Below are positions 9,027-62,009 of a stretch of DNA of 64,000 nt, in pieces. Made by a program: the position numbers and the translations under genes. Each line of letters opens with the position of its first letter. Position 1 is the stretch's first letter. This DNA is from Leucoraja ocellata. Taxonomy: Eukaryota. The notes under the pieces were generated by a model. The model searched no databases, was not told where the DNA came from, and worked only from the letters and a program-made list of their open reading frames with translations. The DNA lies in contig JAWMAR010000151.1 of NCBI GenBank assembly GCA_036785375.1, positions 3,100,001 to 3,164,000 on the forward strand. Direction: 5' to 3'.

Positions 9027-9221
9027 CGTGTGTCTGGGCTTTCATGACAGCACAGCCAAGGGAAGAGGGAAGGGGCAAGTGGACATAATCCTCCTCCTCG
9101 GAGAGATAGGAAACAGCAACACTAGCAGCAGACACGGCGTGCATGGACAGCGAGTCCAGGAATGGGAGGTTCAACCCATCAGGCATCAGGTGTTTAATTA
9201 AAACAAGTGCTTTCTCATTCT
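9027..9221 (-). CDS. KIF1A: Candidate alternative KIF1A cassette exon (E)NEKALVLIKHLMPDGLNLPFLDSLSMHAVSAASVAVSYLSEEEDYVHLPLPSSLGCAVMKAQTH
   Basis: 195 nt, phase 1-1 matching the host intron, no stop; T-rich tract plus TTTTGCAG acceptor; ACG|GTTCGT donor; not a KIF1A segment I recognise. Confidence 0.5.
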
Positions 9222-11988
9222 CTGCAAAATGTGACATGGGAACAGAAAATAACAGAAATCATAACATTGCACCAACTCAGACAGGCTGCCTAATGAAGAA
9301 AGAAACGTGTTAGTATTCCCAGTCCCCATCCACTGCCCCACCAAGACCAGACAATTGCTGCAGGTTAGAGTGTGCGAGAGAAAACGTGAATGCTGTCCTT
9401 GGATATTGTCTAGCCCTGGGACGCTTATCTGATTTCAGGTGCTTTTACTTCTGATAAATGAGACCTGACCTATCTATTCTCATCTCTCTACCTGCAATAC
9501 TCAGTAAAACAATGCAGTTCTTAGAAAAGGTGGCATTGTAGATTAATGAACATGCCCTAATATCATGTGCTGCTGTCAACAATCTGGCAATTAAGTCCTC
9601 CAAGCAGTATCTGGCAACTAGATCCAGTGAGACTGGTTTCTCAGATGCGACATGCTGAAAGGTTGATTTTATGAAAATAGATCATGTTCGAGATTTGTTT
9701 GGGTGGATTTTCACCAGTCTCGAAAATGGTTTTTGTAGTTACAGATTAATGATTTTTTCCTGGCATCAGGTGCATGCCTAGTGATGTCACTATTCACACC
9801 AGGGCTGTTATTGCCCACTCTGACATTAATTGGAACTTAAAACTCCACATTGGGGATCTTGTGGAAGACTCACTAAAAACTGGAACACATTGTGCTTGCC
9901 TGGGTATTGTTCTCACAGCCGGCATTGGGGGAATTGACCAGGCATCTTCAAAATTAACAACGAACCGCACAGGCACTTTCCAAAGTTAACGATCTTGAAC
10001 TAACAGGGAATGTTTCTCTCAGCATTCAGCTTCTGAGATACCAATTCAAAGGGTAAACATGGTATGACTGCTGGCAGCATACAGTTGCCATAGGCATCAT
10101 TACAGCCATGGTTGGCCTTAAAGACCTCAGGTGAAGCCATGTTCATCCATGGAGACAACTCCAGAGATCCATGGATAGTGTCACTGGAGGCATAATTACA
10201 GTCATGCTGGCCATTCAGGATGGGCCAGACCTCAGGAGAAGTTCATTATTAGAGACAATTCCCAGTGAGTCTTTGAGATGCCAAAATACATGGTCCTCCC
10301 AGACAACAATGTACATGTCAGCTCAGGTTTCCATGGCTATTGTCACTGAAAACAGAAAGACCTTCAATTATGCTCATGTCTAGACCGTGTTGTTCACTGA
10401 TCGGTCATGTTTCTTAGTTTTCTGACAATGTATCATTTCTTAAGCAGACCCTTGCCAACCCTCTTAATTTAGCTCATTGTGGAGTAGAGAGGTTACTCAG
10501 ACTATCTGTTCACATAGAAATTGTTTAATCTCTTGTTTTTGGTGCGAAGGAGACACCTGGACAGCACTGTTGGCTTCCAACCAATGCAGGCGATTATGCA
10601 CTGCCTCACACTTCATGTAGAGCTCCCTTGAATAACCTGGACTGGTTTATTAATAGGAAAAGTTTCTGCTTCATCCATATGCAAGCTTTGACAACAACGA
10701 GAAGAATATCACGTTTCTGTGAAACACAAGTCATTTCCTTTCCTGAGGGAGTCAGGACTTCTGATCAAAACTGGAACTCTCTCCCATCTCCATGGTGCCT
10801 GTTGTTTAAACCCTGATACTTCTATGTTTCTCTTGCTCAGCAAGTAGACTACATTAACCCGAGTCTGATTCCATCAAGAACCACATAGATCCCGTTTCAG
10901 GGGGATCACCAGCCTAAGCTAGCTTCAAAAATGTGTTTTTAACTTTCTCTTTTTTTTGAGTAAGTCCTAATCTGGTACAAGCACAAAGCATGACAAATGC
11001 CTGTGCACTGAAAATAGACAAAATCTAGTTCTGGGCTCAGATTCTTTCCAGCGTGGTTTTTACGGTCTTCATTATTGATAAGCTCCTCATTCCAAATTTG
11101 TTTAACTAACTTAAGATGACTTGTGGAGGAAGATGAACTCATGTCTGCATTATTAAGTCCAAGTTTTTGCTAATGGATGCCGAAGTGTTGATGTTAGAAC
11201 GGTGCAGGGCACCAAGGATGAAGTTCAGGATTACCTCAATGATCACAGGATGAAGTTAAAAGTTGCCCTTGGACTGATCGAGACAGACTGAGGCTGATAT
11301 TGATACCAGGTTAAGCTTTAAGGTTAATACTTGGAAACCCAACCTCTCCACTGTAGCCTGGTTTCAATCTCAGTAGAAAGCCTGAGGTCAGAGATTGGCA
11401 CTGATGAATGTGGTGGTAGTTTCAGAGTCAAGGTCTTTGTCAATGTAGAGAGTATGGCAGTTAAGCGGCTGAGGGAGAGTGGATGGGAAGCCTTGATTAT
11501 GTCTGAAACATGCAATGCCACTCACTGATGTTATAGAGAGAATGTTTGCCCATTTTCAATCTGATATGTACAAACTAAATTTCTGAGCATGTCCATCAAG
11601 ATCTTTGCATTACTCTTGCCTCCTTCCTTCTCTACTACCCTGAAGTTGCTGTCTCTTGCTCCAGTTTGATGGTTTCCCACAGGCGACCTGATACTCTCGA
11701 GCCTGAGGGACTAGTGGACTGAGCACAGGACCGGCATAGGACTCAGCTATAACAGGACCAGCACCTCCAACTCATCATCAGTCACTGTTGGTGACTGCAA
11801 TGAAATTGAGGTTTTCTAATTCACAAATATAAGGGACCTGATGTCATCTGAGATATCCGAAAATTCACCTTCACCAATAAATTGATTGGGTAAAGGATAT
11901 TGTATACAATAAGTGACTGCTTTTTGCTGTTTCCCAGTTAATTGTCACTAAGTTCATCAATAAAGCATGAAACGTTCAATTGTCTCAC

Positions 11989-27200: not shown

Positions 27201-28876
27201 TGTGAGTAGTGAGCAGAGTGACCATCACCTGCATGAGCTGTGAAGAGTAGGCATAGCGACACACACTCTTCGGTGCTTCCTGTCTATCTTCAGGATCTTT
27301 TACAACCATCCCTGGCCCAATTCATCTTGCGTGTAATGCCACAAGAATTTGTTTACCAAGGGGTTTACTGTTGGCCTCCTGAAATTGAACTATGTTGGAA
27401 TAGTATTCCTTGCATCTTAACCCTGCACTAGGGTCACCCACCCTTGCCCTTACCCATTTCCATTATTCTGATTTCTCCAACTCCATGAATTCATCAAATA
27501 CTTAGTTTTGTAATTCTACCAGCTGCCTAACCCACAACTAACTTTATAAATTTGTCACATGCTATGCCACCTTTCAGCCCTCCATCAGTTGAAGAGATGT
27601 TATGTACATCGGCCTTTCTCTCTGCCCCGAATTGTTCTTTTTCACTGCTTTTCTTCCCACTAAACTGGTCATTCACTTGCTTTTATTTCGCACCCTTTCA
27701 TTTATATCAGAAGCCCTGCTCGCTCCTATTTAAGAGTTTAGTTGTTCCATGTTGGAACACAATATGGTCAGAAGGTAAATGGTATATTTAATTGCTGCTT
27801 GGTGTTAGTGTTCTGAGATTAAACACAAGCACTGGACAATTCTATTTAAGGAGCAAATTTCTCCTGCTTTCCTTGAAAGCTCTAATTCTATCAACTTCAT
27901 ATCAAATGCTTTCCTGGTAAGAGGTAACAATTTCCAAACCAAAAAAGTTGTACAATCCTTCTTTAAAAAAATTAACAAAAAGGTGTAGTAAATTGTTCAT
28001 TAATGCAAGTCTCACTGCAGTGCCCTATTGTCAACCATGCTAGAAACCACAGCAAAAGCTGCCTTCCTCCGTGAGATACAATGGAATCCATATGTACACA
28101 ACTGTGATGTAAACAAAGGCACAGACATTTAACCAATTTAGCTGCATCCATTTTGGCTATCCAGATGTTGGGTTTAAAAGGCCAAATCCAGTGCTTCTGA
28201 CCCACCCATCCAAAATCTAACTGAAGCATTTTATTGTCCCGTGGAACGCATGGGTCTCTGACAAGAGAGAGAATGCAGCAAGTGGAAGCTGCTGCTCTGT
28301 CAGTATATTCTCAAACACAGGGGGATCCACTGGGCATCCTGCACCCTATCAGCCAACAAGCGGTAAATCATGTGCTGAGAATGAGTAAGCTGAGGAAATT
28401 GTTTGCAGAAATCTTTGCTCAATCTCACCTTTCTCATGTTGAGCAGAAGACAGAGCACATTCAATAAACTTACCAGGCTTGGAAACTCATTACCCCAAAT
28501 AGTAGAGTGCCAACAGATTCATGTGAATACTTCAGCAATCCCAGATAAGTTTGGGATGACTTTGGTATGACTTTTACCAATTTGTTGCATACTGTAGGAT
28601 TCCACTCTATCTGACAACATGAATTTTGTCTTGACACTTACAATGTATTAGTTTTCTAGATGGTGATAACGCAACTGTTGCACAGTATCACAGTCCACAT
28701 CTTGAATGAAATCTCCATCAGTGTGAACCAGCGGCCCTTGAGGCAAATCTGGGGCTTATGGAGAATGGATAATGACTCCAGCATTAAGATCTGTTGTGAC
28801 CATTTGCCACTGGGGTTACTCTTCTCAGTGTGAAAGAGCTAGTCCCTTCCCTTCATGCTCTAGAGACCTCACCAAC

Positions 28877-29188
28877 CTTCCCACTAAACTGAACCAGGGT
28901 GAGCGGTCGTAAAACGGGTCCTGGCCATCATGGTGGAACTGGTACCCTTCGTCTCCCCCCAGGTCAGAAAAGGGATCATCCAGAAAGATTTCATCGTCCA
29001 GCTCCTCCTCATCCTCATCCTCATCCTCATCCTCATCCTCCTCCTCCTTTCCATCATGCCGCTCGTCTGCGAGCTCAGTGATGTCAGAGTCAGGGTTCGA
29101 GAAGGTGGGGGAGGGGGTGAGATCAGCCATGCGCTCAGTCATGCAAGTGTTGAAAATGGGAGTACTAGTACAGCCAGAGACAGGGGAA
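28877..29188 (-). CDS. KIF1A: KIF1A acidic exon (alternatively spliced in mammals): (S)SPVSGCTSTPIFNTCMTERMADLTPSPTFS...EDEDEDEDE...DPFYDRSPWFSLVG
   Basis: 312 nt, phase 2-2; CCCTAG acceptor, AAG|GTTGGT donor; homologous to the poly-Glu exon of long KIF1A isoforms. Confidence 0.92.
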
Positions 29189-40073: not shown

Positions 40074-40627
40074 AACATCAAAATTTGAGATTAGTGGTGG
40101 CACACCCTACTGAAGAGGCATTTGATGCCATTCTGATGGCTGGGAAGACAACACGTGGATAGTGTATCTGTCCTAAGGAAAAGACATACTACAGGCTGGA
40201 CTGTAAAGAAAGTTTCACCATCATTCAGATGAAAACATTGAGACTCCATAAAGAATTAGCACAGAGAGATTCTAGAGAGGGTAATACTTCTCTCTCAACC
40301 TTCTGTTGCTACTTCCATGGAGACAATGCTAGGGATGAGCAGTATCCACATGCATCTGGACACTTAAACCTTGGAAAAATTGCATTCAAACAAGAAAAGA
40401 ACTACACTGCAGTGCAATTCATTCAACATGGATACGTTGCTTCTGGGCTCTCTCGTGTCATCCAGATGAAATGGGTAAAGCTAATTCATTTTCCAAATCA
40501 ATTGAAACCATAAGTAGAAATTTAAATGTACCTGTGTTTCACTGGTTTCACTGCTCATCTCTAAACATGACTACAACTATTAGTTATCATGGTAAACAAC
40601 ACTATAAAAAGTTTATCACAATCTTAC

Positions 40628-40765
40628 CTTCCGACCAACCGAAACCATGGGAAACGATCGTAAAATGGATCTCCACCCGTCATAACATTGTCACAGTCAT
40701 CGACCACACTGGAAGGCACTTCAGCGGCACGGTCATACATCTCACGCATCAGGTCTAGTCTCTGT
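40628..40765 (-). CDS. KIF1A: KIF1A exon: [45 protein letters not shown]
   Basis: 138 nt; TTGCAG acceptor, AAG|GTAAGA donor; phase 2-2. Confidence 0.97.
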
Positions 40766-40929
40766 CTGCAAGAGATATGAGTCCAACACACTAATCTCAG
40801 CCACATCCTTACAGGCACGGGCACAAACAGAGGTCACGCTGATTGCAGAAGTGCCGCTGGCTGCAGAAGCCCCACAGTGGAGAGGCAGTGCTCAGCCGTG
40901 TGAGTAGATTCAAGAAAGTTTACTGTCAT

Positions 40930-43271: not shown

Positions 43272-46694
<3,423 letters not shown>

Positions 46695-46708
46695 TTAACT
46701 GTAGTCAT

Positions 46709-47963
46709 CAATAGACAATAGACAATAGGTGCAGGAGCAGGCCATTTGGCCCTTCGAGCCAGCACCGCCATTCAACGTGATCATGGCTGACCATCCACAA
46801 TCAGTACCCTGTTCCTGCCTTCTCCTCATATCCCCTGACTCCGCTCTCTTTAAGAGCCCTATCAAGCTCTCTCTTGAAAGTATCCAGAGAACCGGCCGCC
46901 ACCTCCCTCTGCGGCCGAGAATTCCATACTCACAACTCTTTGTGTGAAAAAGTGTTTCCTCATCTCCGTTCTAAATGCCTTACCCCTTATTCTTAAACTG
47001 TGGCCCCTGGTTCTGGTCTCTCCCAACATCGGGAACATGTTTCTTGCCTCAAGCATGTCCAAATTCTTAATAATCTAATATGTTTCAATACGATAGCCTC
47101 TCATCCTTCTAAATTCCAGAGTATACAAGCCCAGCTGCTCTATTCTCTCAGTATTTGACAGCCCCGCCATCCCGGAAATTAACCTTGTGAACCTACGCTG
47201 CACTCCCTCAATAGCAATAATGTCCTTCCTCAAATTAGGGGACCAAAACTGCACACAATACTCCAGGTGTACACAATACTCCAGGTGTGGTCTCACTAGG
47301 GCCCTGTACAACTGCAGAAGGACCTCTTTGCTCCTATACTCAACTCCTCTTGTTGTGAAGGCCAACATGCCATTCGTTTTCTTCACTGCCTGCTGTACCT
47401 GCATGCTAACTTTCATTGACTGATGTACAAGGACCCCCTGATCTCTTTGTACTTCCCCGTTTCCCAACTTGACACCATTTAGATAATAATCTGCCTTCCT
47501 GTTTTCGCTACCAAAGTGCATAACCTCACAATTCTCCACATTAAACTGCATCTGCCATGCATCTGCCCACTAACCCAACCTGTCCAAGTCACCCTGCATT
47601 CTCATAACATCCTCCTCACAGTTCACACTGCCACCCAGCTTTGTGTCATCTGCAAATTTGCTAATGTTACTTTGAATCTCTTCATCTAAATCATTGAGGT
47701 ATATAGTAAATAGCTGCGGTCCCAGCACCGAGCCTTGCGGTACGCCACTAGTCACTGCCGTCCATTCTGAAAGGGACCCGTTAATCCTTACTCTTTGTTT
47801 CCTATCTGCCAACCAATTTTCTATCCATGTCAGCACTCTACCCCCAATATCATGTGCTCTAATTTTGTCCACTAGTCTCTTATGTGGAACCTTATCAAAT
47901 ACTTTCTGAAAGTCCAGGTACACTACATCCACTGGCTCTCCCTTGTCCATTTTCCTAGTTACA
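46709..47963 (-). mobile_element. CR1 LINE 3' 1.25 kb, tail-to-tail with the preceding copy
   Basis: ORFs 47570-48091 and 47075-47551 (RT motifs); (TATTGTC)n tail; internal 18-bp duplication giving HLEYCVHLEYCV. Confidence 0.93.
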
Positions 47964-48116
47964 CCATCACAAGAGCAGCACTTGCTGTGAGAGTTAGTTG
48001 ACTCTTCAAATGTTGCCACAGCTTCCTGATCTATTTCGCTAGCTTCCTTGCTAATGCCACGGGGAAATGAGACAATAGTAAAACATGACAAAAAATGAAG
48101 AGGGATGTTCTCTCAC

Positions 48117-50184: not shown

Positions 50185-52352
50185 ACTCAAGGAGGTGGCC
50201 CTAGAAATTGTGAACACATTGGTGATAATTTTCAATAGACTCTGGATCAGTTCAATGTGGACTGGATGGTAGCTAATATAACCCTACTATTAAAGAAAGG
50301 AGGGAGAGAGAAAACAGGGGATTATAGACCAGTTAGCCTGACATTGGTTGTGGGAAGATTCTTGTTGATTATTAAAGAAGTAAAAGCAGAGCATTTGGAA
50401 AGCAGTGACAGGATCAGTTAAAGTCAGCATGGATTTATGAAGGGGAAATCATGCTTGACTGATCTTCTGGAATTTGTTGAGGATGTAACAAGTAGAATGG
50501 ATAAGGGAGAGCCAGTGGATGTGGTGAATGTCGACTTTCTAAAAGCCTTTGACAATGTCCCACACAAGAGATATGTATGCAAAATTAGAGCACATGGTAT
50601 TGGGGATAGGGTATTCGGTGGGGGCGCTGCAAGCCGGCAGTCCTGCCAGCAGCGTGTGAGATTTTTTTACTTTTTTTTAGTGTGTTTAAATGTATGTATT
50701 TAATGTTTCTCTGTTTTTTGTGTGCCGGGTGATGTGGGGGGGTAAGGGGGAAACCGCTTTGGTCGTCTCCTCCACAGAGAGGCAACTTTTTCCATGTCGC
50801 CTCCCCCGTGGCCTAACATCGAGGATCGGTGTGGCCTTTCCCGGAGACTCCATGGACTCCCGGCGTGGAGCGGGCGAGCCCTTGCTGGGGGCTCGCCGGA
50901 GGGGAGCGCTCTGTTTCGCTGGCCCACGGCAGCCTGAAACCGCGGTCTGCAGAGCTCCAGCTGGCGCAGTGTCCGCAGCGTGGGACCCCTCGCTGGGGAC
51001 CCGGGAGAAGAAGAAGCTCCCACCGCAGGCCTGTGGCCAACTTCTACCGCGGGCGTGGCGGGGACTTACCATCAGGAGCGGGGACCCTCGCTGGGGACCC
51101 CTGGAGGAGAGCTTCGACCGCCGGCCCTGCGGTCTGCGGTGCTTCTGGCTGCGGTGCAGAGGGAACTTTAAATCTTCGACCGCCAGCCTGCGGCCTACAC
51201 CAACCTGAAGCTGCAGTCTACGGTGGGGGAGGCACCGTTTCAGGACTTACCTTGACTTTCACTCATCTGGACCATGCGGAGGGTTGAGGTCCCGACCATG
51301 GGGGAAAATGGAGGAGGACTGGCCAAATTTTGTGCCTTCCACCACAGTGATGAATGTTGTGGTGGATGTTTGTGTTAATTTTTTATTGTGTTTTTGTGTG
51401 TTCTTTTTCATTGTACCAATGCTGGCAAATTCATTTCACTTGCACTTTATGTGCAAGTGACGAATAAAACTGATTGTATTTGATTGTATTGTAGGGTATT
51501 GACATGGATAGAGAGCTAGTTGGCAGACAGGAAGCAAAGAGCAGGAATTAATGTGTCCTTTTCAGAAAGGCAGGCAATGACTAACGGGCGCCTCAAGGTT
51601 CAGTGCTGGGATTCCAGTTATTTACAATATATATTAACGATCTTGACGAAGGAATTAAATGTAAAATTTCCAAGTTTGCGGATGACACAAAGTTTGGTGG
51701 CTGGGTGAACTGCGAGGAGGATGCTATGAGGCCTCAGTGTGACTTGGATAGGTTGGGTGAGTGAGACCATGCACGGCAGATGCAGTATAATGTGGATAAA
51801 TGTGAGACTATCCACTTGGGTGGCAAGAAAAAGCAGATTATTATCTGAATGGTGTCAGATTCGAAAAAGGGAAGATGCGACGAGGTTTGGGTGTCCTTGT
51901 ACATCAGTCACTGAAAGTGATCATTCAGGTACAGCAGGCAGTGAAGAAAGATAATGGCATGTTGGCCTTCACAGCGAGAGGAATTGAGTATAGGAGTAAG
52001 GAGGTCCTACTGCAGTTGTACAGGGCCCTGGTGATACCACACCTGGAGTATTGTTTTGGTCTCCTATTTTGAGGAAGGACATTCTTGCTATTGAGGGAAT
52101 GCAGCATAAGTGCACCAGTTTTTCACCCAGAGAGTTGTGAAACTGGAATTCTCTGCCACAGAAGGCAGTCGAGATGATTTCACAATGTTTTTAAGAGAGA
52201 GTTAGATACAGCTCTTCGGGCTAACAGAATCAAGGGATATGGGGAGAAAGCTGGAACGGGGTATTGAATTTGGATGATCAGCCATGATCATATTGAATGG
52301 CGGTGCTGGCTCGAATGGCCTACTCGTGCACCCGTTTTCTATGTTTCTACGT
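50185..52352 (+). mobile_element. CR1 LINE RT fragment interrupted by a GC-rich insertion
   Basis: GKSCLTDLLEF…KAFDNVPH, KFADD and QVQQAVKK motifs; 3' tail at ~52340. Confidence 0.9.
50616..51491 (+). mobile_element. GC-rich non-autonomous retroelement with a Rex1/Babar-type 3' end and 9-bp TSD
   Basis: TAGGGTATT at 50607-15 and 51492-500; 3' hairpin TCACTTGCAC..GTGCAAGTGA, AATAAA and a short-repeat tail. Confidence 0.8.
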
Positions 52353-52409
52353 TTCCAAGTATGGTTTCCTGTTTCCATGCTGTATGATTCGATGGTTGAA
52401 AATATATAC

Positions 52410-52493
52410 CTGATCTAAGTACAGTTGGTTCAGTCACTTGCTTTCCGTTGAGGTATGTGTCTGCTCCTTCACATGGTTCAAGAATGACAATCA
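52410..52493 (-). CDS. KIF1A: KIF1A exon (FHA): (V)[27 protein letters not shown]
   Basis: 84 nt; TTATAG acceptor, CAG|GTATAT donor; phase 1-1. Confidence 0.95.
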
Positions 52494-53623
52494 CTATAAA
52501 GCAGAAGAAAAATGCTGAGAGATTCTTAAAATTAACACAAGTGAGCTGGTAATTTCATCAACCACACTAGATCTTCATGGGTCTCCCTGCTCCCCCTGCA
52601 GTCCACATCAATGACAGCAGCTTTCAGCAATGCAGATTAACCCAGCTTGCCCAGTTCTCTTGCGGTCACTTGAAGATAAATTTTAATATTTGTCTTTGAC
52701 TTCAGTAACAAGAGTGTAATAATTGTTACTGAATGAAAACTCAAAGGAAAATGTTCAGCACAATGACACTACAGGAATCCAGGTCCATTTAAAAAGGTAC
52801 AGAAATAAAAAGCTGACATTAGTAAAAGTAACCATGAAGCTGTTGAAATGCCATAATATCATGAGGGTCTCGACCCAAAACTTCAACAATTCTTTCTCCC
52901 AACAGATGCTGCACTGCTCACTGAGTTCCTCCAGCAGTTTGTTGTTTGATCATAACTAGCCCATGTTATCCTTCAGTGCGTCATAAATTTCAAAAGGCAA
53001 GGTTCATTAAAATGGTAGTGGGATGACAGAAATAATGTACATAGTATCGAAGAAGCTAAAGCAAAGCTCCAGAGAAGTAAATTGTAATCACACTTGGAAG
53101 TAAGGATATTAAAAGCTGTTAAAATGAAGGTTGTGGAATTTAAGGTAGTACTATTAGTACCCATTAAAATATTGCAATGTTCTTTAGAAAATCTACCATC
53201 TGCTTAGACATGGGTCTAGTGTGTTTAACTCTCAGCTACCCTCTGAAATTGAGTAGAAATTAGCTTAATTATATCAAACTGCTCAACAGTCTGGTCATAA
53301 GGTCATTGGTAGTTCCAGAAGCTCTCAACGTCACCTTCTGTCCTGTATTTGGAGGTTTAGTGCTGGCTTTGTCATTAAGACCCACGTAAAAGGCAACAAA
53401 AAGGCCATTCAGTAAATATTTAATAATTGATTGCAGCACACTATGCATAAAATGGACCTCTTCGGTGAGTTGCCATTCCTTGAATGCAGAGCACAGGATC
53501 ATTCATCTAATGTTTCAGTGAGGCCCTGCAGTCCAAATTAAAATTTCACTTGAACATCAGCAACATCAGCCTGGCACCCACTATTAAGATAGTGCTTCAC
53601 ATTAATGTGCAGCTCATAGGTTA

Positions 53624-53812
<189 letters not shown>

Positions 53813-56193
53813 TTAGATTAAATTGTTTTAAATCCATGAAAATTATCACCGAATACCATATTGAAACCCAGATCCACTGTGAAGTTCTTATGCTTGATTG
53901 CCTAGTACTGCATCAGGAGTTTAATTATAATGAAACCAATCAATTGTTCACAATTTCTATTAAGGCCGTGGCATATAACTGAGTGAGTTTATGTTTGAAA
54001 TGCACCAAATTGCTGGCAATAGCCATTTAGACTGATTCTCTCAGGATTCCATCACAAATAAATGAAAAAGGGATGCAACCAATGTGTAAATTACTGGGGT
54101 GTGCGTGTGTGAGAGAGTGACTTTGAGTGTATGTTCTTTTGTCTTGACCAATTGGTAGCCTTCATTCACATCATTTTGTGGCCATTTGTGATGTGTTGCC
54201 AGGTTCAATGTCTGTCTATGTACCACCCAGCACCACAGATTAGAGATTAATTACCATAATCTAGTTTGGCCATCAATGGAGAAAAATCATGGGTACAGTT
54301 ATAAAAAGTGTGTGCTTTTGTTTTAAGCATTCATGAAGATTTCTTAATTGTTATTCATAAAATATTGAAGATGGGAAACAAGATTGAATAATGGTCAAGA
54401 AACACCCACTCAGCAAATGAAGAGCCTGTTTGTTTACTGATCAGAAAGGAAGGTGGTATTTTGTGAAGCTCGCGTATCGGACAACCAAAGGTGGGATTGT
54501 TGGAATGGGGCGGACTGGAGATGGGAGTTTACATGATGAAATCTTCTGAAACACATCCAACCACCTGGAGGTAACTATGCGCACAATTGCTGCAGTGTGC
54601 AAATTTAATTAATTGCACATGAACAGTTACAAGAAATGACAGACATTATATAAATTCAAACTTGCATGATGTGAGGCACATACGTAAAACTGAACTGAAC
54701 AAGCAATCAACCAATATCCAAAAATAATATTACTCAATTATCTTAGTTATAGCCTAGAAAGTGAAGAAATCCTAACTTAGAATTTGGTTTATACGTGTCT
54801 GAAGTTCCTGTTTAAATATATGTGGTCAGATTTTCAAGATCCAAGAATATCTTGGTAACTTTTCTTAAATGGAAATAGGAGCTGCTCTGTTCATGCCCAA
54901 GAAAGTCTATATAAGCACCTGAGAGAAGGAACCAATCAGTCTGAACCTCCCAAAAAAAGATAAATCAGTTTTGGTATCCAAGAAGCAATATGGACTGACT
55001 GCCAGACTGCTAAAAATGTTATATGAAAACAAACGATGCATTACCTCGAGGTTATTTTCAATGAGTAAGATTAGTTCATTGAGTTTATTTTTATGCTGCC
55101 TTGTGGTTGAGTAGAGGATGGTCTATTGTCAGCTTGCAGTCATATTTATGGTTCTTATTTATGTGTTTGCTTATGTTTTGGTAAAAAAAAGATTAGCTTG
55201 ATATTTTAAATTAAAAATGTACCTAATGTGACATTTGCAGGGCATTTAGTTAAGACCATAAGCAGCCGTGTAGGTAATTGCCAAGCAGCGTGTGCTGTTT
55301 GCTTCCCAGGTACAGTGCTAAATGCTTACCAACTTTAAACCAAGTTAGTCATTCTCAGAGGTATTGGGAACGATCCAAAGATATCAAGAGTTGTGTAGAT
55401 GCCAAACATCTGCTCACGGGATGAGTCATCAGCATTTCTGGCTTCTGTTCATGCTGCCACTGCTAATTCCTGAAGATTTTAAATCACCTCATAATACACT
55501 GCAGGCTGTTACTTCTGTGAATAGGCAATATTTCAGCACGGGTGCAACATAGATCATTTGAAATGGATTGTGGGGAACATTTATTGGTCCCCTTGGGCCT
55601 CCGTGGGAATGAGGCTCACAAACTCTGGCAAACAAGCTGCTGAAATGATCTCCAGCAAGAGGATTATTAAAGAACCACAAACGTAACAGTCCATTTCGTT
55701 CAAGTTTACATAAAACCCCACAGAAATTACACCATGGAAAAGGCTGGGTGGCTCCATCAGCCCATGTTGGTATTTATCCCTTACGGGAAGAGCAGACCAA
55801 ATTTTAAGCACTTGGCCTGTTCCAATAACTCCAGGCCCTCCTTTCCAGATTATATTGGTGTCAATATTGTCGCTGCTACAACAACAAACATTAGTAGTTC
55901 ATGCCAGTCTTGCAATACTTCAGAGTTCTATTGCCTTCTGTATTAAATCTCATAGATGCTCCCTGATTTATGCAAGGGTTACATCCCACGGACCTTTGCG
56001 CAAGTCAGATATTGTGACCATGTGGGTGCTCCAACGTGGAGACCACGTGGGTGCCATTGGGCTTGAATAATTGCTTATGTAAGTGTGAGTTTAATTAGTT
56101 CACCTGTTGTGTACGTCGGCGAGTGCCTGTACTTTTCATTTAACATCTCTTTACCCAACGCATCTCAGCACATGAACTCAGTTTTGGTTTCAC

Positions 56194-56291
56194 CAGTCTG
56201 AAGAATGGTCTCAACCCAAACCATCACCTATCCATATTCTCCAGGGAAGCAGCCTGACCTGCTAAATTACTCCAACATTTTGTGTCTTTTA
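56194..56291 (+). mobile_element. Penelope-type repeat fragment with an 11-bp TSD, starting at the hammerhead-like core
   Basis: TTTGGTTTCAC at 56183-93 and 56292-302; CTGAAGA at 56198-204. Confidence 0.65.
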
Positions 56292-56509
56292 TTTGGTTTC
56301 ACTTAATGCTTTTAACAGAGGCTCTGAGTTATACTTTTTTTTAATCATGTGTTGTTTCTTGCCTGTTTGCAGATAAGTTTTCAATTTGATTATTCCATTA
56401 TTGGTAACTGAAAAAAACATACTTTCCATCTAAATTTAGAGTCAGTCATCACTGTCAATCTATCACTGGCCACATATCCTGAACATTATGCTTTGCTCAG
56501 CCACATTTA

Positions 56510-56650
<141 letters not shown>

Positions 56651-57129
56651 CTATAAGGGAAGATTAGATAATGTCAAAGGAAATTGTGGACTTCTGTGCA
56701 TTAAGAACGTGGGACCAGACATATTTGTTTATTTTGCTAGCTTCACTGTAGTGATTTCCCAGTAAACTAAAAAAATAAATACCATCCAGCTCCTTCGAGT
56801 TTCACCATGGTGGGCTGTTGTGCAGTCGCACACCATTAACATGAATACCACGTATGCTCTGAACTTTGCAAAGCTAAGAAATTAAGCTTTCAATTTGGCA
56901 AACATGTTCTTGTCCATTGAAGGTTTTGTCCATTGGGTGTTGAGCATGGTCAAGCATGGCTCTCACTGACTGGCTGGCAATTAATGTTAATTTGGTCTTT
57001 TGCTATTTGGTTAGTTTTCATTAAGCATGGCAAGATAAATCTACAACCATTCTTTGAATCATTCATTTTGTACACGCCAGGGATTCCTGCATTCACTGTC
57101 CAGCTCCCTGCACATTCCACATAAAACCT

Positions 57130-57300
57130 TGGATCGCCCATATTTGGAGTACTGTTTTCTAGTTCTTGTCCCCATACCAGAAGACATAGGAAGGATGTGC
57201 TGGCTTTAGAGAGGGTACAGATGAGGTTCACCCGGATGTTGTCTGGATTAGCAAGTATTAGCTGTTAGAAGTTGCACAAACTTGGATTGTTTTCTCTAGA
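57130..57300 (+). mobile_element. CR1 RT C-terminal fragment
   Basis: HLEYC and DVLALERVQMRFTRM remnants. Confidence 0.65.
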
Positions 57301-59651
57301 GAAAATGCATGTCTAATTGTGGAAGGTTCTGATATTAACGGATTTACTCCTTGAGGTCAGAAATTTCAAACGATGCTGGTGCTGCGTTTCTGGTCCAGTG
57401 GCAATGTTTAGCTGCTGAAATCACACCCAATAATGTTTCACACACACTCATGCACACGCACATGCACACATGCAAAGTTGTTAGATTGGTTGAAACATTT
57501 CTAGCCCAAATATACATCCATCGTCCATGGTCCTTAACATGATTCTAAGAGAATAGATATTAAACATAACACCATGCAACAACTAATTAACACAGAATAG
57601 ACCATTTTCAGGAACCCAAATATTAACACTCACAGGTGACGCAGCTTGGAAATGGAGCATGTTTTACAGATCTCAAAATGCACTGCCAAGACAATGCATC
57701 TTAAACTGTGCAATATATCAACAGTGACATTTTGGAGGGTTATGAACCTCTCGTGGCATTTATCGACAGAAACCCCTGTGTTGATGGTATTTCCTTTTTT
57801 TACACAAAAAATGACATTATAATTTGCAGTTGGATTGATCAGATTTAGGTTACGAACACCAATTCATACACTCTTCTCCATAAAGGATTGCATATATATC
57901 TATTAACAGTGAATTGTGGATAATAACAAAGCACTTTAGCCCTTCTCCCCCTGCCCACATCTTTAATCCTTTGAAGAATTGTCCCTTGTCAATAAAACTG
58001 GCAGAGAAGGAAAGGGTATTTTTCCACACCTGTTGTCATGATGTGTTGGGCACTACAGAATGTGTGGTGGGAAAATATTTGGTTGTAAATTTCCATAGTG
58101 AATTGCCTGTCCACTCGAGTAATAAATAATTGAGTGGGACCAAGCAATTAGCTCTTTCTAAAAGCTAGCACAGCCTTGGCCTGTCGCTATCAGAGCTGGG
58201 GGTGAGTTTACATGTACATTTTTGAACATGTCAAGTGTAACAAACAATATTAAGAACCACTGGCTGATCTTATTTTTGAGCAGGATTCTTTCAACTGCTG
58301 TTGCTCCGGCTGAGACTGACAAGATGGACTCACATTAATGATCTTCATGGCTTGATGAAGCCATCAAGTTTGGAACTCACTTGAGTGTGAGTTCCTAATT
58401 AGCAAACTATAAGCATTCGAGTTATAATACTCCAGTCTTCCCACTATATGGGGAGGCTGCTTATGAACAGGGTTACGTCAGTACTATCAGTAGGATTACT
58501 AGCCCTCCAGAAATCTCAGTAAGATTATTGTAAAACCATGTCACAATGTCAACTTAGTTCAGACAATGCCTAAATTGGGGTGTCTCATTTTTTAACCCCT
58601 GACAATGCCAATTAATATACATGAATGCTTCCTTTGTGTTGTGGTTGTAGATGATGGGAAAATAATATGGTTCTACTGTAGTGATCATTACAGTCCTCTG
58701 TCTGCTCCATTGATCCAAAAACCTGAACATTTAATCTGTACCTCACCGTAAGTGAAGACTGTGATCCATCATGTCTCTGTGGAAGCAGATTGTCCAATCT
58801 GTAGCAATCCAGTAAAATCCATTGAGCTAATGGCTACAATGTCAGGTGCATTGTGGAAATAGATGATCCTCATGGATTGATGAGTTTGTTGGGAGATGCT
58901 CTCCCGCAATGTAATTAGAACCTCTGCTGACAATTTATTTAATACAAATACTGGGATTCACTAACTCACAAAATGGAAACCATATTGATAGGAGTTAGAA
59001 ACACTAGGAGAAATAGTCAAAACTGGTCTCGACATGGGGTGCAGAGAGATGCTGGATTTATGCTTTAGGAAAATCAGAGGATCTTTTCCCAGGAGGTTAA
59101 ATGAGCAGGTAGTATCTTGGCAGTGCAACTGACAGGCTTGATGGATTATGCATCATTTCCGCCTACCACATTTTCTCATGAACTTAAACAGATGACATTT
59201 ATAGGGGGAGTTGGAGATGGCAATAATGAGAATGAGGTGAGGAAGGAAAGATGAGTGGATGATTTGGACTGAGGGGTAGAATGGGAAGGAATGGATGGAA
59301 GGAAGAAGGATGGATAAGAAATCCAAGAAGATGAGGAAAGTGAAGAGAGAAGTGGTGGTGGTGGTGGGTGGGGGGGGGGGGGGGGGGGGGTTGCAGAGAG
59401 AAGGAACAGGAGAAGGAGAGACAAGAGGGCAGAGTTGGAGTGTGAATGGAGTTAGGTCACAAAGTCCTCTTCAAAAGTTGATGGACTGGGAACATTTTCT
59501 TTGATTAAGTTGGGCCCTTTAAGGCATGGCGGTGATGCTGATGAATGTATCTGAACCAGCCAATGGAATCGAGGATTCCATATTATAAGTGACAGAACAA
59601 ACCAAATCCAAGAGAGCACAGCACTTCACACACATGGTCACCCAAACAAAC

Positions 59652-59714
59652 CTCCTTGGGAGAGAACACCCCCAGAGACTCCAGCAACATCTGAGCTGCT
59701 CTTCTCCGTTCAAT
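59652..59714 (-). CDS. KIF1A: Candidate alternative KIF1A cassette exon IERRRAAQMLLESLGVFSPKE
   Basis: 63 nt, phase 0-0 matching the host intron, open frame; long pyrimidine-rich region then TTCCTGTTAG acceptor; GAG|GTTTGT donor; ends in LGVFSPKE, like LGVFSPKK of the preceding exon. Confidence 0.65.
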
Positions 59715-60429
59715 CTAACAGGAATTAAACAGTTGCAGGGTTGAGCACGAGTTGGGAGGGGTGAGGAGTTAAAACGGTGGGAAAGTGAAGGAGATAGCAA
59801 ACACAAAAGACACCGATATACAATTTATAAAGCAGCAATTATTATAATTTAGATGGTGTGCAGCTGATAGGAGTTAAAACAAAGGCATTTTACACATACT
59901 CAATGTGGATAAATGTTAACAAAATCTTCACAGATGAACATGGCCGCAATACAATTATGCATTAGCACATACACACATGCGCACTCGATCAAATGTGCGC
60001 ATACACAGACACATACAAGAACACATATGTACGTGCATGCCACACACACACACACAAAGGGAAAAAAACCCTCCTTCTTACTATTCATCCATTGGGAAAA
60101 GACGCCTCTGTTTTGGAGGCTTGGGTTTCTGTTCACCATTTTTTTCGATGACCTACATGTTGTTATCCCAATAATGTTTGCAGAGAATATTTCAATGTCA
60201 AAAAGACAATCTATTTTAACCTCCATATCATTGTCCACCTGCACCTTTCTCAGTTCGCTTTCTGGTGAAATCCTCATCCCAGCTTTTATTGCAACTGGTT
60301 AACTTTTCTAATATATTCCCGATGCTCTCACTCAATCTCCAGCAGGTAAACTTCAAATCGTCTAAAACGTGATCGATGATGTTCAGGTGGCACTAATTGC
60401 AGTTTGTCTCTCACCACTGTATTTGCTGA

Positions 60430-60760
60430 CTTGTACTAGCTCGCAGTTTACCATTCCTTCATTTTAAGATACTCATCTTTTGAGATCGTCTCATGCCCTC
60501 GTGCCTCCATATTTCCTTAATCTCTTCCAAGCCTACAACCTTCTGAAAGATCTGCACTCCATCAACCTTGGATCTGATTGTTTCACCAATGGCTCCATAC
60601 ACTCAGCTGCCATGCCCCTAACGTGATTTACCTCAATAAACCTTTTCTTCTGAAAATCAAACTCTTTTCTATCTTAATATTTCATATGACTTTCTGACAA
60701 ACTCTCCTATGAAGTGTCTTAGAACATTCTGCCTACAGAATATCATATCTGTAAGATTTG
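60430..60760 (+). mobile_element. L2-type LINE 3' fragment (old)
   Basis: Remnant FKILI…SHALVPPYFLNLFQAYNLLKDL. Confidence 0.45.
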
Positions 60761-61327
60761 ATAAACTAATTAGGTGTTTAAATTTGTAGATGAAAGATGT
60801 TCAAGGAAGTACCACCAAACCTCATTTCTGAAATTTAAGCCTATAAACGCTATTCCAAGACCTCTTGGATAATTGGCTTGGCAAACATTCATCTTCTAAC
60901 CATACACATAGTTTCTAACCAAACACAAGGAGGTCATTCATCTCCTTTTTTTATGATACTTCACTGCGGGGTTAAACTAACACATTTCAATAAGTAGAAA
61001 AAATGAGTGTAAACATCATGCATTGGATACATGTCTTCCAGTATGTTTCTCATCGATGTAGCAAAGGTAAATATATTTTTCTGATCTCCCTCTACTGGAG
61101 TTGCAGAACAATTACATTCATGATGGTTTGCCTTTTGATTTGACGCAGAAGAGAAATCATTAATCTGCTTCATGAACAGATATTACAGAGCATGGGAAGT
61201 ATGTTTTCCCAACCATCAAGGGGCTCATCCAAAACCATCCATTCAAAACTTTCATTAAGTAGCACCCTCATTCCCACATCTCTGGACAATTAAGAAAAAA
61301 AATTGGCTTTCAACTTCTTCAGACTCA

Positions 61328-61450
<123 letters not shown>

Positions 61451-62009
61451 CTACACAATAAATGATTTGGGCTATTGACTCTAGCAAAAGGGAATAAATG
61501 ATGGCTGGATAAAAACTTATACTGTGCACTGAAACTCTGGCAGTCTGCAGCTGACCAACAAGCAATTGCCGGGAGACGAGCCTGTGAACTGGTTACCCGA
61601 GGGCAGTTGTGCAGGGAATAAGTTAAAAATATGTATCAAGATGAATAAGGATACAATGATCCGAAAGGACAGGGAAGAAACGTCTGTGATGAACCAGTAC
61701 ACGTAATATTAGTCCTCTCAGATAGTGCTCGATAGTCTCTACACTAGCTATTAAATTCATGATCACTTTCAGCACTAACAGGCTCTTATTCCATATCACC
61801 ATAGAATGCTATTTGGCCAATTGAATTTATGCTGGCTCTCAGAGCAATCTTTTCCAATTATTTATTGGTAGCCTATTCTATCACAAATGCCATTGATATC
61901 CTCGGCATTTCTACAGGATCTACAGTTGGCATTTAACCTAATGACCAGCATGTCCTTGAGATGTACAAATTACTGGTTGCACGAGTTGTATAAATCATTG
62001 ATTAGGCTG

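Follow-up and report, generated by a model that had tools for sequence, protein, structure and literature searches.

A conserved, partly duplicated candidate cassette exon between CC1 and the FHA domain of the kinesin-3 proteins KIF1A and KIF1B

The window, a stretch of 64,000 nucleotides from the skate Leucoraja ocellata (contig JAWMAR010000151.1, positions 3,100,001 to 3,164,000), contains exons of a KIF1A gene. A tblastn search with A. radiata KIF1A isoform X4 recovered near-identical exons, in order and on the minus strand, and a tree built from residues 1-900 of 18 proteins separated the KIF1A and KIF1B labels with a support of 1.000. Several other features of the gene were noted. Exon 28876-29166 (-), which contains a run of acidic Glu/Asp residues, has one residue fewer than its counterpart in the A. 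radiata reference. The DPFYDR motif of exon 40627-40785 recurs at the end of this exon, which makes another internal duplication besides the one described below. A segment of 65 residues at 9028-9243 (-), present in skate KIF1A X1-X3 and X10 and in L. erinacea X1 but not in other isoforms, corresponds to an alternative exon of the tail. Reverse-transcriptase-like frames occupy positions 45398-48112, inside an intron.

An interval of 4.7 kb separates the 76-nt exon 61334-61409 from the 79-nt exon 56572-56650. Within it, positions 59714-59652 of the minus strand form a stop-free segment of 63 nt in phase 0-0, flanked by AG and GT, which encodes 21 residues (IERRRAAQMLLESLGVFSPKE). Such ends, a preserved frame and the lack of a stop are what a cassette exon would have. 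The acceptor context reads ...ttcctgttAG and the donor side GTttgt. The AG-free zone at the acceptor extends over 147 nt; in nine further exons of this gene it measures 17-70 nt. The donor consensus is GTAAGT, from which the GTTTGT of this exon deviates. The preliminary description of this DNA had credited the segment with phase 0-0 and good splice signals; the phase, the AG/GT bounds and the long AG-free zone stand, but the signals are not uniformly good because of this donor. When open 63-nt windows in the interval 56651-61333 were scored against the related units of species other than skates (see below), the exon came first of 1631, with a score of 36.5 and a runner-up at 2.0. Its length is above the range of neural microexons (3-27 nt, as given in the accessible part of PMC13174390).

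Table 1. Features at and around the candidate exon, in window coordinates.
Feature	Position	Strand	Basis
Candidate 63-nt alternative cassette exon of KIF1A, 21 residues	59652..59714	-	Splice bounds, frame, match to skate RefSeq models
Duplicated 24 nt (LGVFSPKE), copied from the end of the upstream exon	59652..59675	-	19/24 identical
5' part outside the duplication; short helix predicted; homology to units of KIF1B and of other KIF1A	59676..59714	-	Permutation test, structure model
Acceptor AG, preceded by 147 nt free of AG	59715..59863	-	
Non-consensus donor GTTTGT, followed by UG-rich intron	59646..59651	-	
Upstream 76-nt exon, CC1 end and beta-hairpin (EALLAEMG...LGVFSPKK), source of the 24-nt copy	61334..61409	-	
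79-nt exon on the downstream side, where the FHA domain begins (TPHLVNL...)	56572..56650	-	

The final 24 nt of the 63-nt exon are identical to the end of the 76-nt exon at 19/24 positions, and the five differences comprise four synonymous changes and one change of K to E. This recomputed match agrees with the parallel drawn in the preliminary description. Matches of at least 19/24 are expected by chance 0.0004 times in the 4.7-kb intron, and the second-best match to the 24-nt tail on both strands of the window reaches 16/24. When five random changes were drawn in 200,000 trials, 1.4% of the trials altered one residue or none. The earlier proposal of a partial exon duplicate under purifying selection is supported. 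BLASTN likeness was confined to about 30 nt at the donor, between otherwise dissimilar flanking introns, and one of the four four-fold third positions is common to the copy and its source exon, as saturation predicts. The duplication is thus partial and old; a recent duplication was ruled out by the flanking introns, which have no similarity, and by the saturated third positions. Tandem exon duplication is a general class of event that yields alternative exons. The present case resembles it in that the 3' end of a neighbouring exon, together with its donor, was copied and retained under selection; it differs in that the copy is partial (8-9 codons), lies in another phase and is added rather than exchanged.

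Mutually exclusive exons share their phase and length modulo 3 and never occur together. Here the lengths are 63 and 76 nt and gene models that hold the unit also hold its partner exon, in keeping with the additive use put forward previously. Exclusive use could be reached through an internal acceptor, since internal AGs would give versions of 52 and 49 nt with the same remainder modulo 3 as 76, and the product would be a motor without the beta-finger; alternatively, the in-frame Met of the 63-nt exon could serve as an internal start of a protein without the motor domain. We give either event hardly any credence: the internal AGs are preceded by purines and have no pyrimidine tract, the upstream exon is present in every model with the unit, and the column in question holds a Met in 1/14 of the units compared below.

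A read-through translation search returned, among 3 candidates, one protein, A. radiata KIF1A isoform X4, in which 21/21 residues are identical. The peptide is identical in the RefSeq models A. radiata KIF1A X1-X4 (XP_032887359-362) and shows one substitution in L. erinacea X1 (XP_055502045). In the skate cluster (22 members, of which 15 are listed and 14 full-length, all automated RefSeq predictions), the insert stands directly after FSPKK in 5/14 of the full-length models listed, four from A. radiata and one from L. erinacea, and is absent in 9/14. This position, ahead of the FHA start, agrees with the linker between CC1 and FHA to which the exon had been assigned. The same exon, unnamed and added after FSPKK, thus exists in RefSeq isoforms of skate KIF1A and of vertebrate KIF1A and KIF1B, which are predictions carrying no described origin, tissue pattern or function. 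The case for inclusion is made by automated gene models and conservation. The skate isoforms P0002-P0016 also display hinge inserts of 13 and 22 residues near residue 394 of the shortest isoform, as well as optional segments of 8 and 9 residues (residues 1327-1344 of the shortest isoform). The latter match in size the 24- and 27-nt Kif1a events found in the part of the mouse retina splicing table that was available (PMC4991804 supplement 3).

RNA reads were mapped to the region 52200-62000 from four of the 24 runs listed, of unspecified tissue, with the three raw runs sampled at 5-25%. Most mapped reads fell on a short, highly transcribed repeat at 52200-52360. The joint 56650-61334, which skips the exon, was found in 4/4 sets, with 19, 42 and 13 raw reads (74) and one contig. 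The inclusion joints 61334-59714 and 59652-56650, proposed earlier as a check on the exon, appeared in 0/4 sets among the joints listed (threshold of three reads, ten joints standing outside those listed). In the 327-nt bin that contains the exon, read depth came to 0, 0, 0.2 and 0, at most about one read. With skipping joints only and a bin depth close to zero, the exon is skippable and rare or absent in the sampled RNA. The available part of the mouse retina table, with at least 6 Kif1b and at least 7 Kif1a rows, lists no event in which a 63-nt exon stands between exons of 76 and 79 nt. The UG-rich sequence downstream of the exon might point to an RBM24-type regulation and so to a tissue of use; Kif1a and Kif1b were absent from the supplements of PMC13099659 as far as these were accessible.

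These RNA results would fit an exon that is a relic in skates, rarely or never included and carried into the gene models by sparse or cross-species reads. The non-consensus donor points the same way, as does the loss from the skate unit of an otherwise conserved proline at position 6. Nevertheless, the open frame, the exact length of 63 nt and both splice sites have been kept despite saturated synonymous change, the two skate genera differ at one residue in 21, and whole-codon unit lengths have been kept across jawed vertebrates, which makes a relic very improbable in our judgement.

At least 7 species have KIF1A models, and at least 38 have KIF1B models, with a related unit of 18-22 residues at this junction; these tallies, taken from source names, are lower bounds because matches were ordered by their similarity to the query, and are silent on absence. 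The KIF1A carriers are two skates, four teleosts and chicken, and the KIF1B carriers three sharks, six teleosts, a frog, a snake, a gecko, twenty birds and six mammals including colugo. A search with residues 499-543 as query, in which 8000 candidates were scored and the best 120 taken, gave an insert of 18-42 residues at the junction in 119 of these 120 matches, with whole residues in every case. The evidence from orthologues consists of protein models at the same junction, and at that level the exon has orthologous units, as expected of a conserved cassette exon. Comparison of the protein models also indicates that the exon is not specific to skates and that its age had been underrated in the preliminary description. 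Mammalian, shark or other bird KIF1A with a unit was not seen among the best 120 matches of each search, which is not evidence of loss.

KIF1B models carry none, one or two units, often two in tandem. In the cat and shark KIF1B clusters, of which 30 members were listed, 22 had both units, one the 3' unit alone, seven none and 0 the 5' unit alone. The 5' unit alone occurred in one ab initio gecko KIF1B model (P0187). The upstream unit of KIF1B, of 18-21 residues, is the more divergent of the two (P0027, P0043, P0104, P0118, P0128, P0134 and P0187); it may be encoded by an exon of its own or form the 5' half of a single exon that has two acceptors. No such second 5' unit was detected in the skate interval 56651-61333, where the best other window scored 4.4 versus 14.8 for the known exon.

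Outside vertebrates, no unit was found among the 140 representatives spanning the region in a distant set of 150 (clustered at 50% identity, one protein per cluster), the sole unit in that set being that of gecko P0187. This null result is a weak one, because each cluster shows one protein. Six or more extra residues were present in 5/140 of these representatives, and the four besides P0187 look like unrelated inserts or intron read-through. The single KIF1C models of hagfish and sawfish have no unit. In the amphipod Trinorchestia longiramus, a KIF1-type protein (P0189) contains a long tandem repeat of the stretch from CC1 to FSPKK, possibly an assembly duplication.

Fourteen chosen units, 5 from KIF1A and 9 from KIF1B, were compared column by column. 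G15, S18 and P19 are invariant in 14/14. In columns 1-12, the part that was not duplicated, the KIF1A units match the KIF1B 3' units (column permutation P 0.0004), and so does the skate unit alone against the KIF1B units (P about 0.003); the same columns do not match the tail of the upstream exon (P 0.74, set against the KIF1A units, and 0.84). Because this 5' part is common to both paralogues, the simplest reading is a single origin before the split of KIF1A and KIF1B, by partial duplication of the 3' end of the upstream exon; the second tandem copy would, again on the simplest reading, have arisen in KIF1B by the time sharks and bony fish diverged. The last residue of the units is always K, E or Q, which may partly reflect the donor site, as each of these has a codon ending in AG.

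The duplicated motif appears to depend on position next to the FHA domain. Among distinct units, P0187 and P0304 being left out, those adjacent to FHA end in G[VL][FY]SPxx in 23/23 cases versus 0/13 for the non-adjacent KIF1B 5' units, the first figure being inflated because both searches used a motif-bearing query. The FHA-adjacent unit of gecko P0187 has no such motif. The CDK consensus is S/T-P-x-K/R. The serine of the native motif would be residue 487 by 4EJQ numbering; Huo and colleagues, in their 2012 work on the KIF1A CC1-FHA tandem with its beta-finger, reportedly proposed it as a Cdk5 site. The KIF1B 3' units keep SPKK in 9/9, and the KIF1A units tabulated end in SPKE, SPNE or SPKQ, so that the basic residue at +3 expected of a CDK-type site is absent in 5/5. 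The second S-P-K kinase site imagined for the skate isoform is therefore weak, since the KIF1A copies have no +3 lysine. It could still be argued that the exon works mainly through phosphorylation or partner binding near FHA, with the fold unchanged. The invariant S-P (14/14), the SPKK of all nine KIF1B 3' units and a conserved [RK]-P-x-x-[LVM]-[FLY]-x-[DE]-[ST] pattern speak for such a role. Against it, apart from the missing +3 residue in KIF1A, units set apart from FHA have a decayed motif, and distant kinesin-3 proteins, too, commonly have an S/T-P ahead of the point where FHA begins, so that its role may well be structural. We consider this explanation distinctly unlikely.

The region from CC1 to the end of FHA, insert included, was modelled with AlphaFold2 on a 72-sequence alignment (mean pLDDT 83), which superseded an earlier 13-sequence fold (pLDDT 54). 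The model keeps the CC1 helix (12-53), the native hairpin strands (56-58 and 64-67) and FHA, for which structural matches were 4EGX, 4EJQ, 2EH0 and 2G1L. In the insert, residues 76-86 are modelled, with modest confidence (pLDDT about 57-66), as a helix that gives way to coil; the second GVFSP copy receives no strand assignment, so the second linker strand envisaged at the outset is not borne out by the model. Residues 89-206 align on KIF1A 486-603 of 4EJQ chain D (Z 20.0, rmsd 2.6, 117 residues), and this aligned stretch begins at the Phe of the second GVFSP copy. With a short helix in front of it, the second FSPK copy is thus predicted to occupy the native position next to FHA. The KIF1A CC1-FHA crystal structures 4EGX and 4EJQ, whose flanking sequence is near-identical to that of the skate gene, correspond to the skipping form, as their constructs have no insert. 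A homodimer prediction for the inclusion isoform scored 0.01 and was counted neither for nor against.

An exon that is real and ancient could also tighten autoinhibition, or block an activating CC1-FHA dimer: with the beta-finger parted from FHA the dimer would be impossible, and the short helix could pack like the inhibitory CC1c of KLP-6. The accessible part of PMC9314371 ties the CC1-FHA dimer to activation and describes CC1c packing on the motor and FHA in KLP-6. The predicted insert helix directly precedes the stretch that aligns to KLP-6 residues 442-558, and superposing the model over its whole length on 4EGX chain B gives an rmsd as high as 16.5. This poor whole-length fit, however, comes from the inclusion form modelled alone, with no skipping form set beside it. 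A proline at position 6 is present in 13/14 of the orthologous units, and a long insert helix is therefore not conserved. Moreover, nearby splice inserts raise activity in the descriptions that could be consulted (PMC12436618; PMC10987577 citing Matsushita 2009). Tightening thus seems unlikely to us, though it carries more weight than the explanations discussed above.

We favour a loosening of autoinhibition, because of four lines of evidence from related motors, each as given in the accessible parts of its source: in autoinhibited KLP-6 a compact packing of CC1, FHA and the motor underlies autoinhibition (PMC9314371), the CC1-FHA tandem can dimerise in a manner linked to activation (PMC9314371), FHA mutations release the autoinhibition of UNC-104 (bioRxiv 2023.12.24.573241), and inclusion of the Kif1a hinge exon 13 raises dimerisation, ATPase and velocity (PMC12436618). 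On this basis we think it somewhat more probable than not that the locus contains an ancient in-frame KIF1A exon whose GVFSP copy replaces the native segment at FHA and loosens self-inhibition in a restricted cell type. Upon inclusion, the spare GVFSP would supply the segment that FHA needs at its N-terminus, while the end of CC1 and the beta-finger would be shifted 21 residues from FHA; their coupling to FHA would thereby be loosened, leading to a looser self-inhibited fold in that cell type. We infer a real inclusion in some tissue. The shift in register of CC1 and the beta-finger relative to FHA is suggested by the structure model, and an effect on autoinhibition by analogy with related kinesins. 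As to the direction of the effect, the analogy with the hinge exon tilts the balance only slightly towards easier activation. A bolder version would have a switch, older than the split of the paralogues, swap a spare linker in before FHA and evict the beta-finger, with a poor KIF1A kinase site replacing SPKK, so that a cell-type-specific kinesin-3 is freed from CC1-FHA control; the two units of KIF1B would then act as a three-step dial, mammals included. We regard this version as tentative and rather doubtful.

The loosening that we favour would not represent a new kind of system, since tuning by hinge and K-loop splicing is known and the exon already figures in automated annotations. K-loop inserts lie in the motor domain. 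The Kif1a exon 13 hinge insert, as described in the accessible part of PMC12436618, is likewise a short in-frame exon that changes activity in a motor-proximal regulatory region of a kinesin-3, as are, in the parts available, the K-loop and hinge inserts of KIF1B (Matsushita 2009 as cited in PMC10987577 and PMC12626424), which are also short and in frame. Exon 13, however, precedes CC1, in the hinge, while the 63-nt exon lies between the beta-finger and FHA and partly duplicates its neighbour. Two exons met in the literature were set aside as different: the KIF1A exon of PMC13646608 is located in DUF3694 and the KIF1B exon of PMC2636774 is an alpha-type terminal exon, both according to the parts of these papers that were available. 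A description of the present exon was not found in the open literature, a search that left subscription papers mostly outside, and supplements or splicing databases may list it. The homology between the units of KIF1A and KIF1B, and the relation of these units to the upstream exon, come from the present sequence comparison and not from those annotations.

Taken together, comparison of sequences and gene models argues that the regulatory hub of KIF1A and KIF1B contains a real cassette exon, deeply conserved and in part duplicated. Variants of KIF1A are described as a cause of neurological disorders. KIF1B has been linked to neuropathy. How a kinesin-3 escapes from autoinhibition is an open question relevant to disease, and an insert that both paralogues have kept at one exact junction from early jawed vertebrates onwards would provide a natural pair of isoforms for models of the beta-finger and FHA. 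If the reading is true, a disease gene has an isoform that is not represented in the matched crystal structures. A colugo KIF1B model carries the unit, and if humans keep the exon, it would be a candidate coding exon missed by variant analyses on canonical transcripts.
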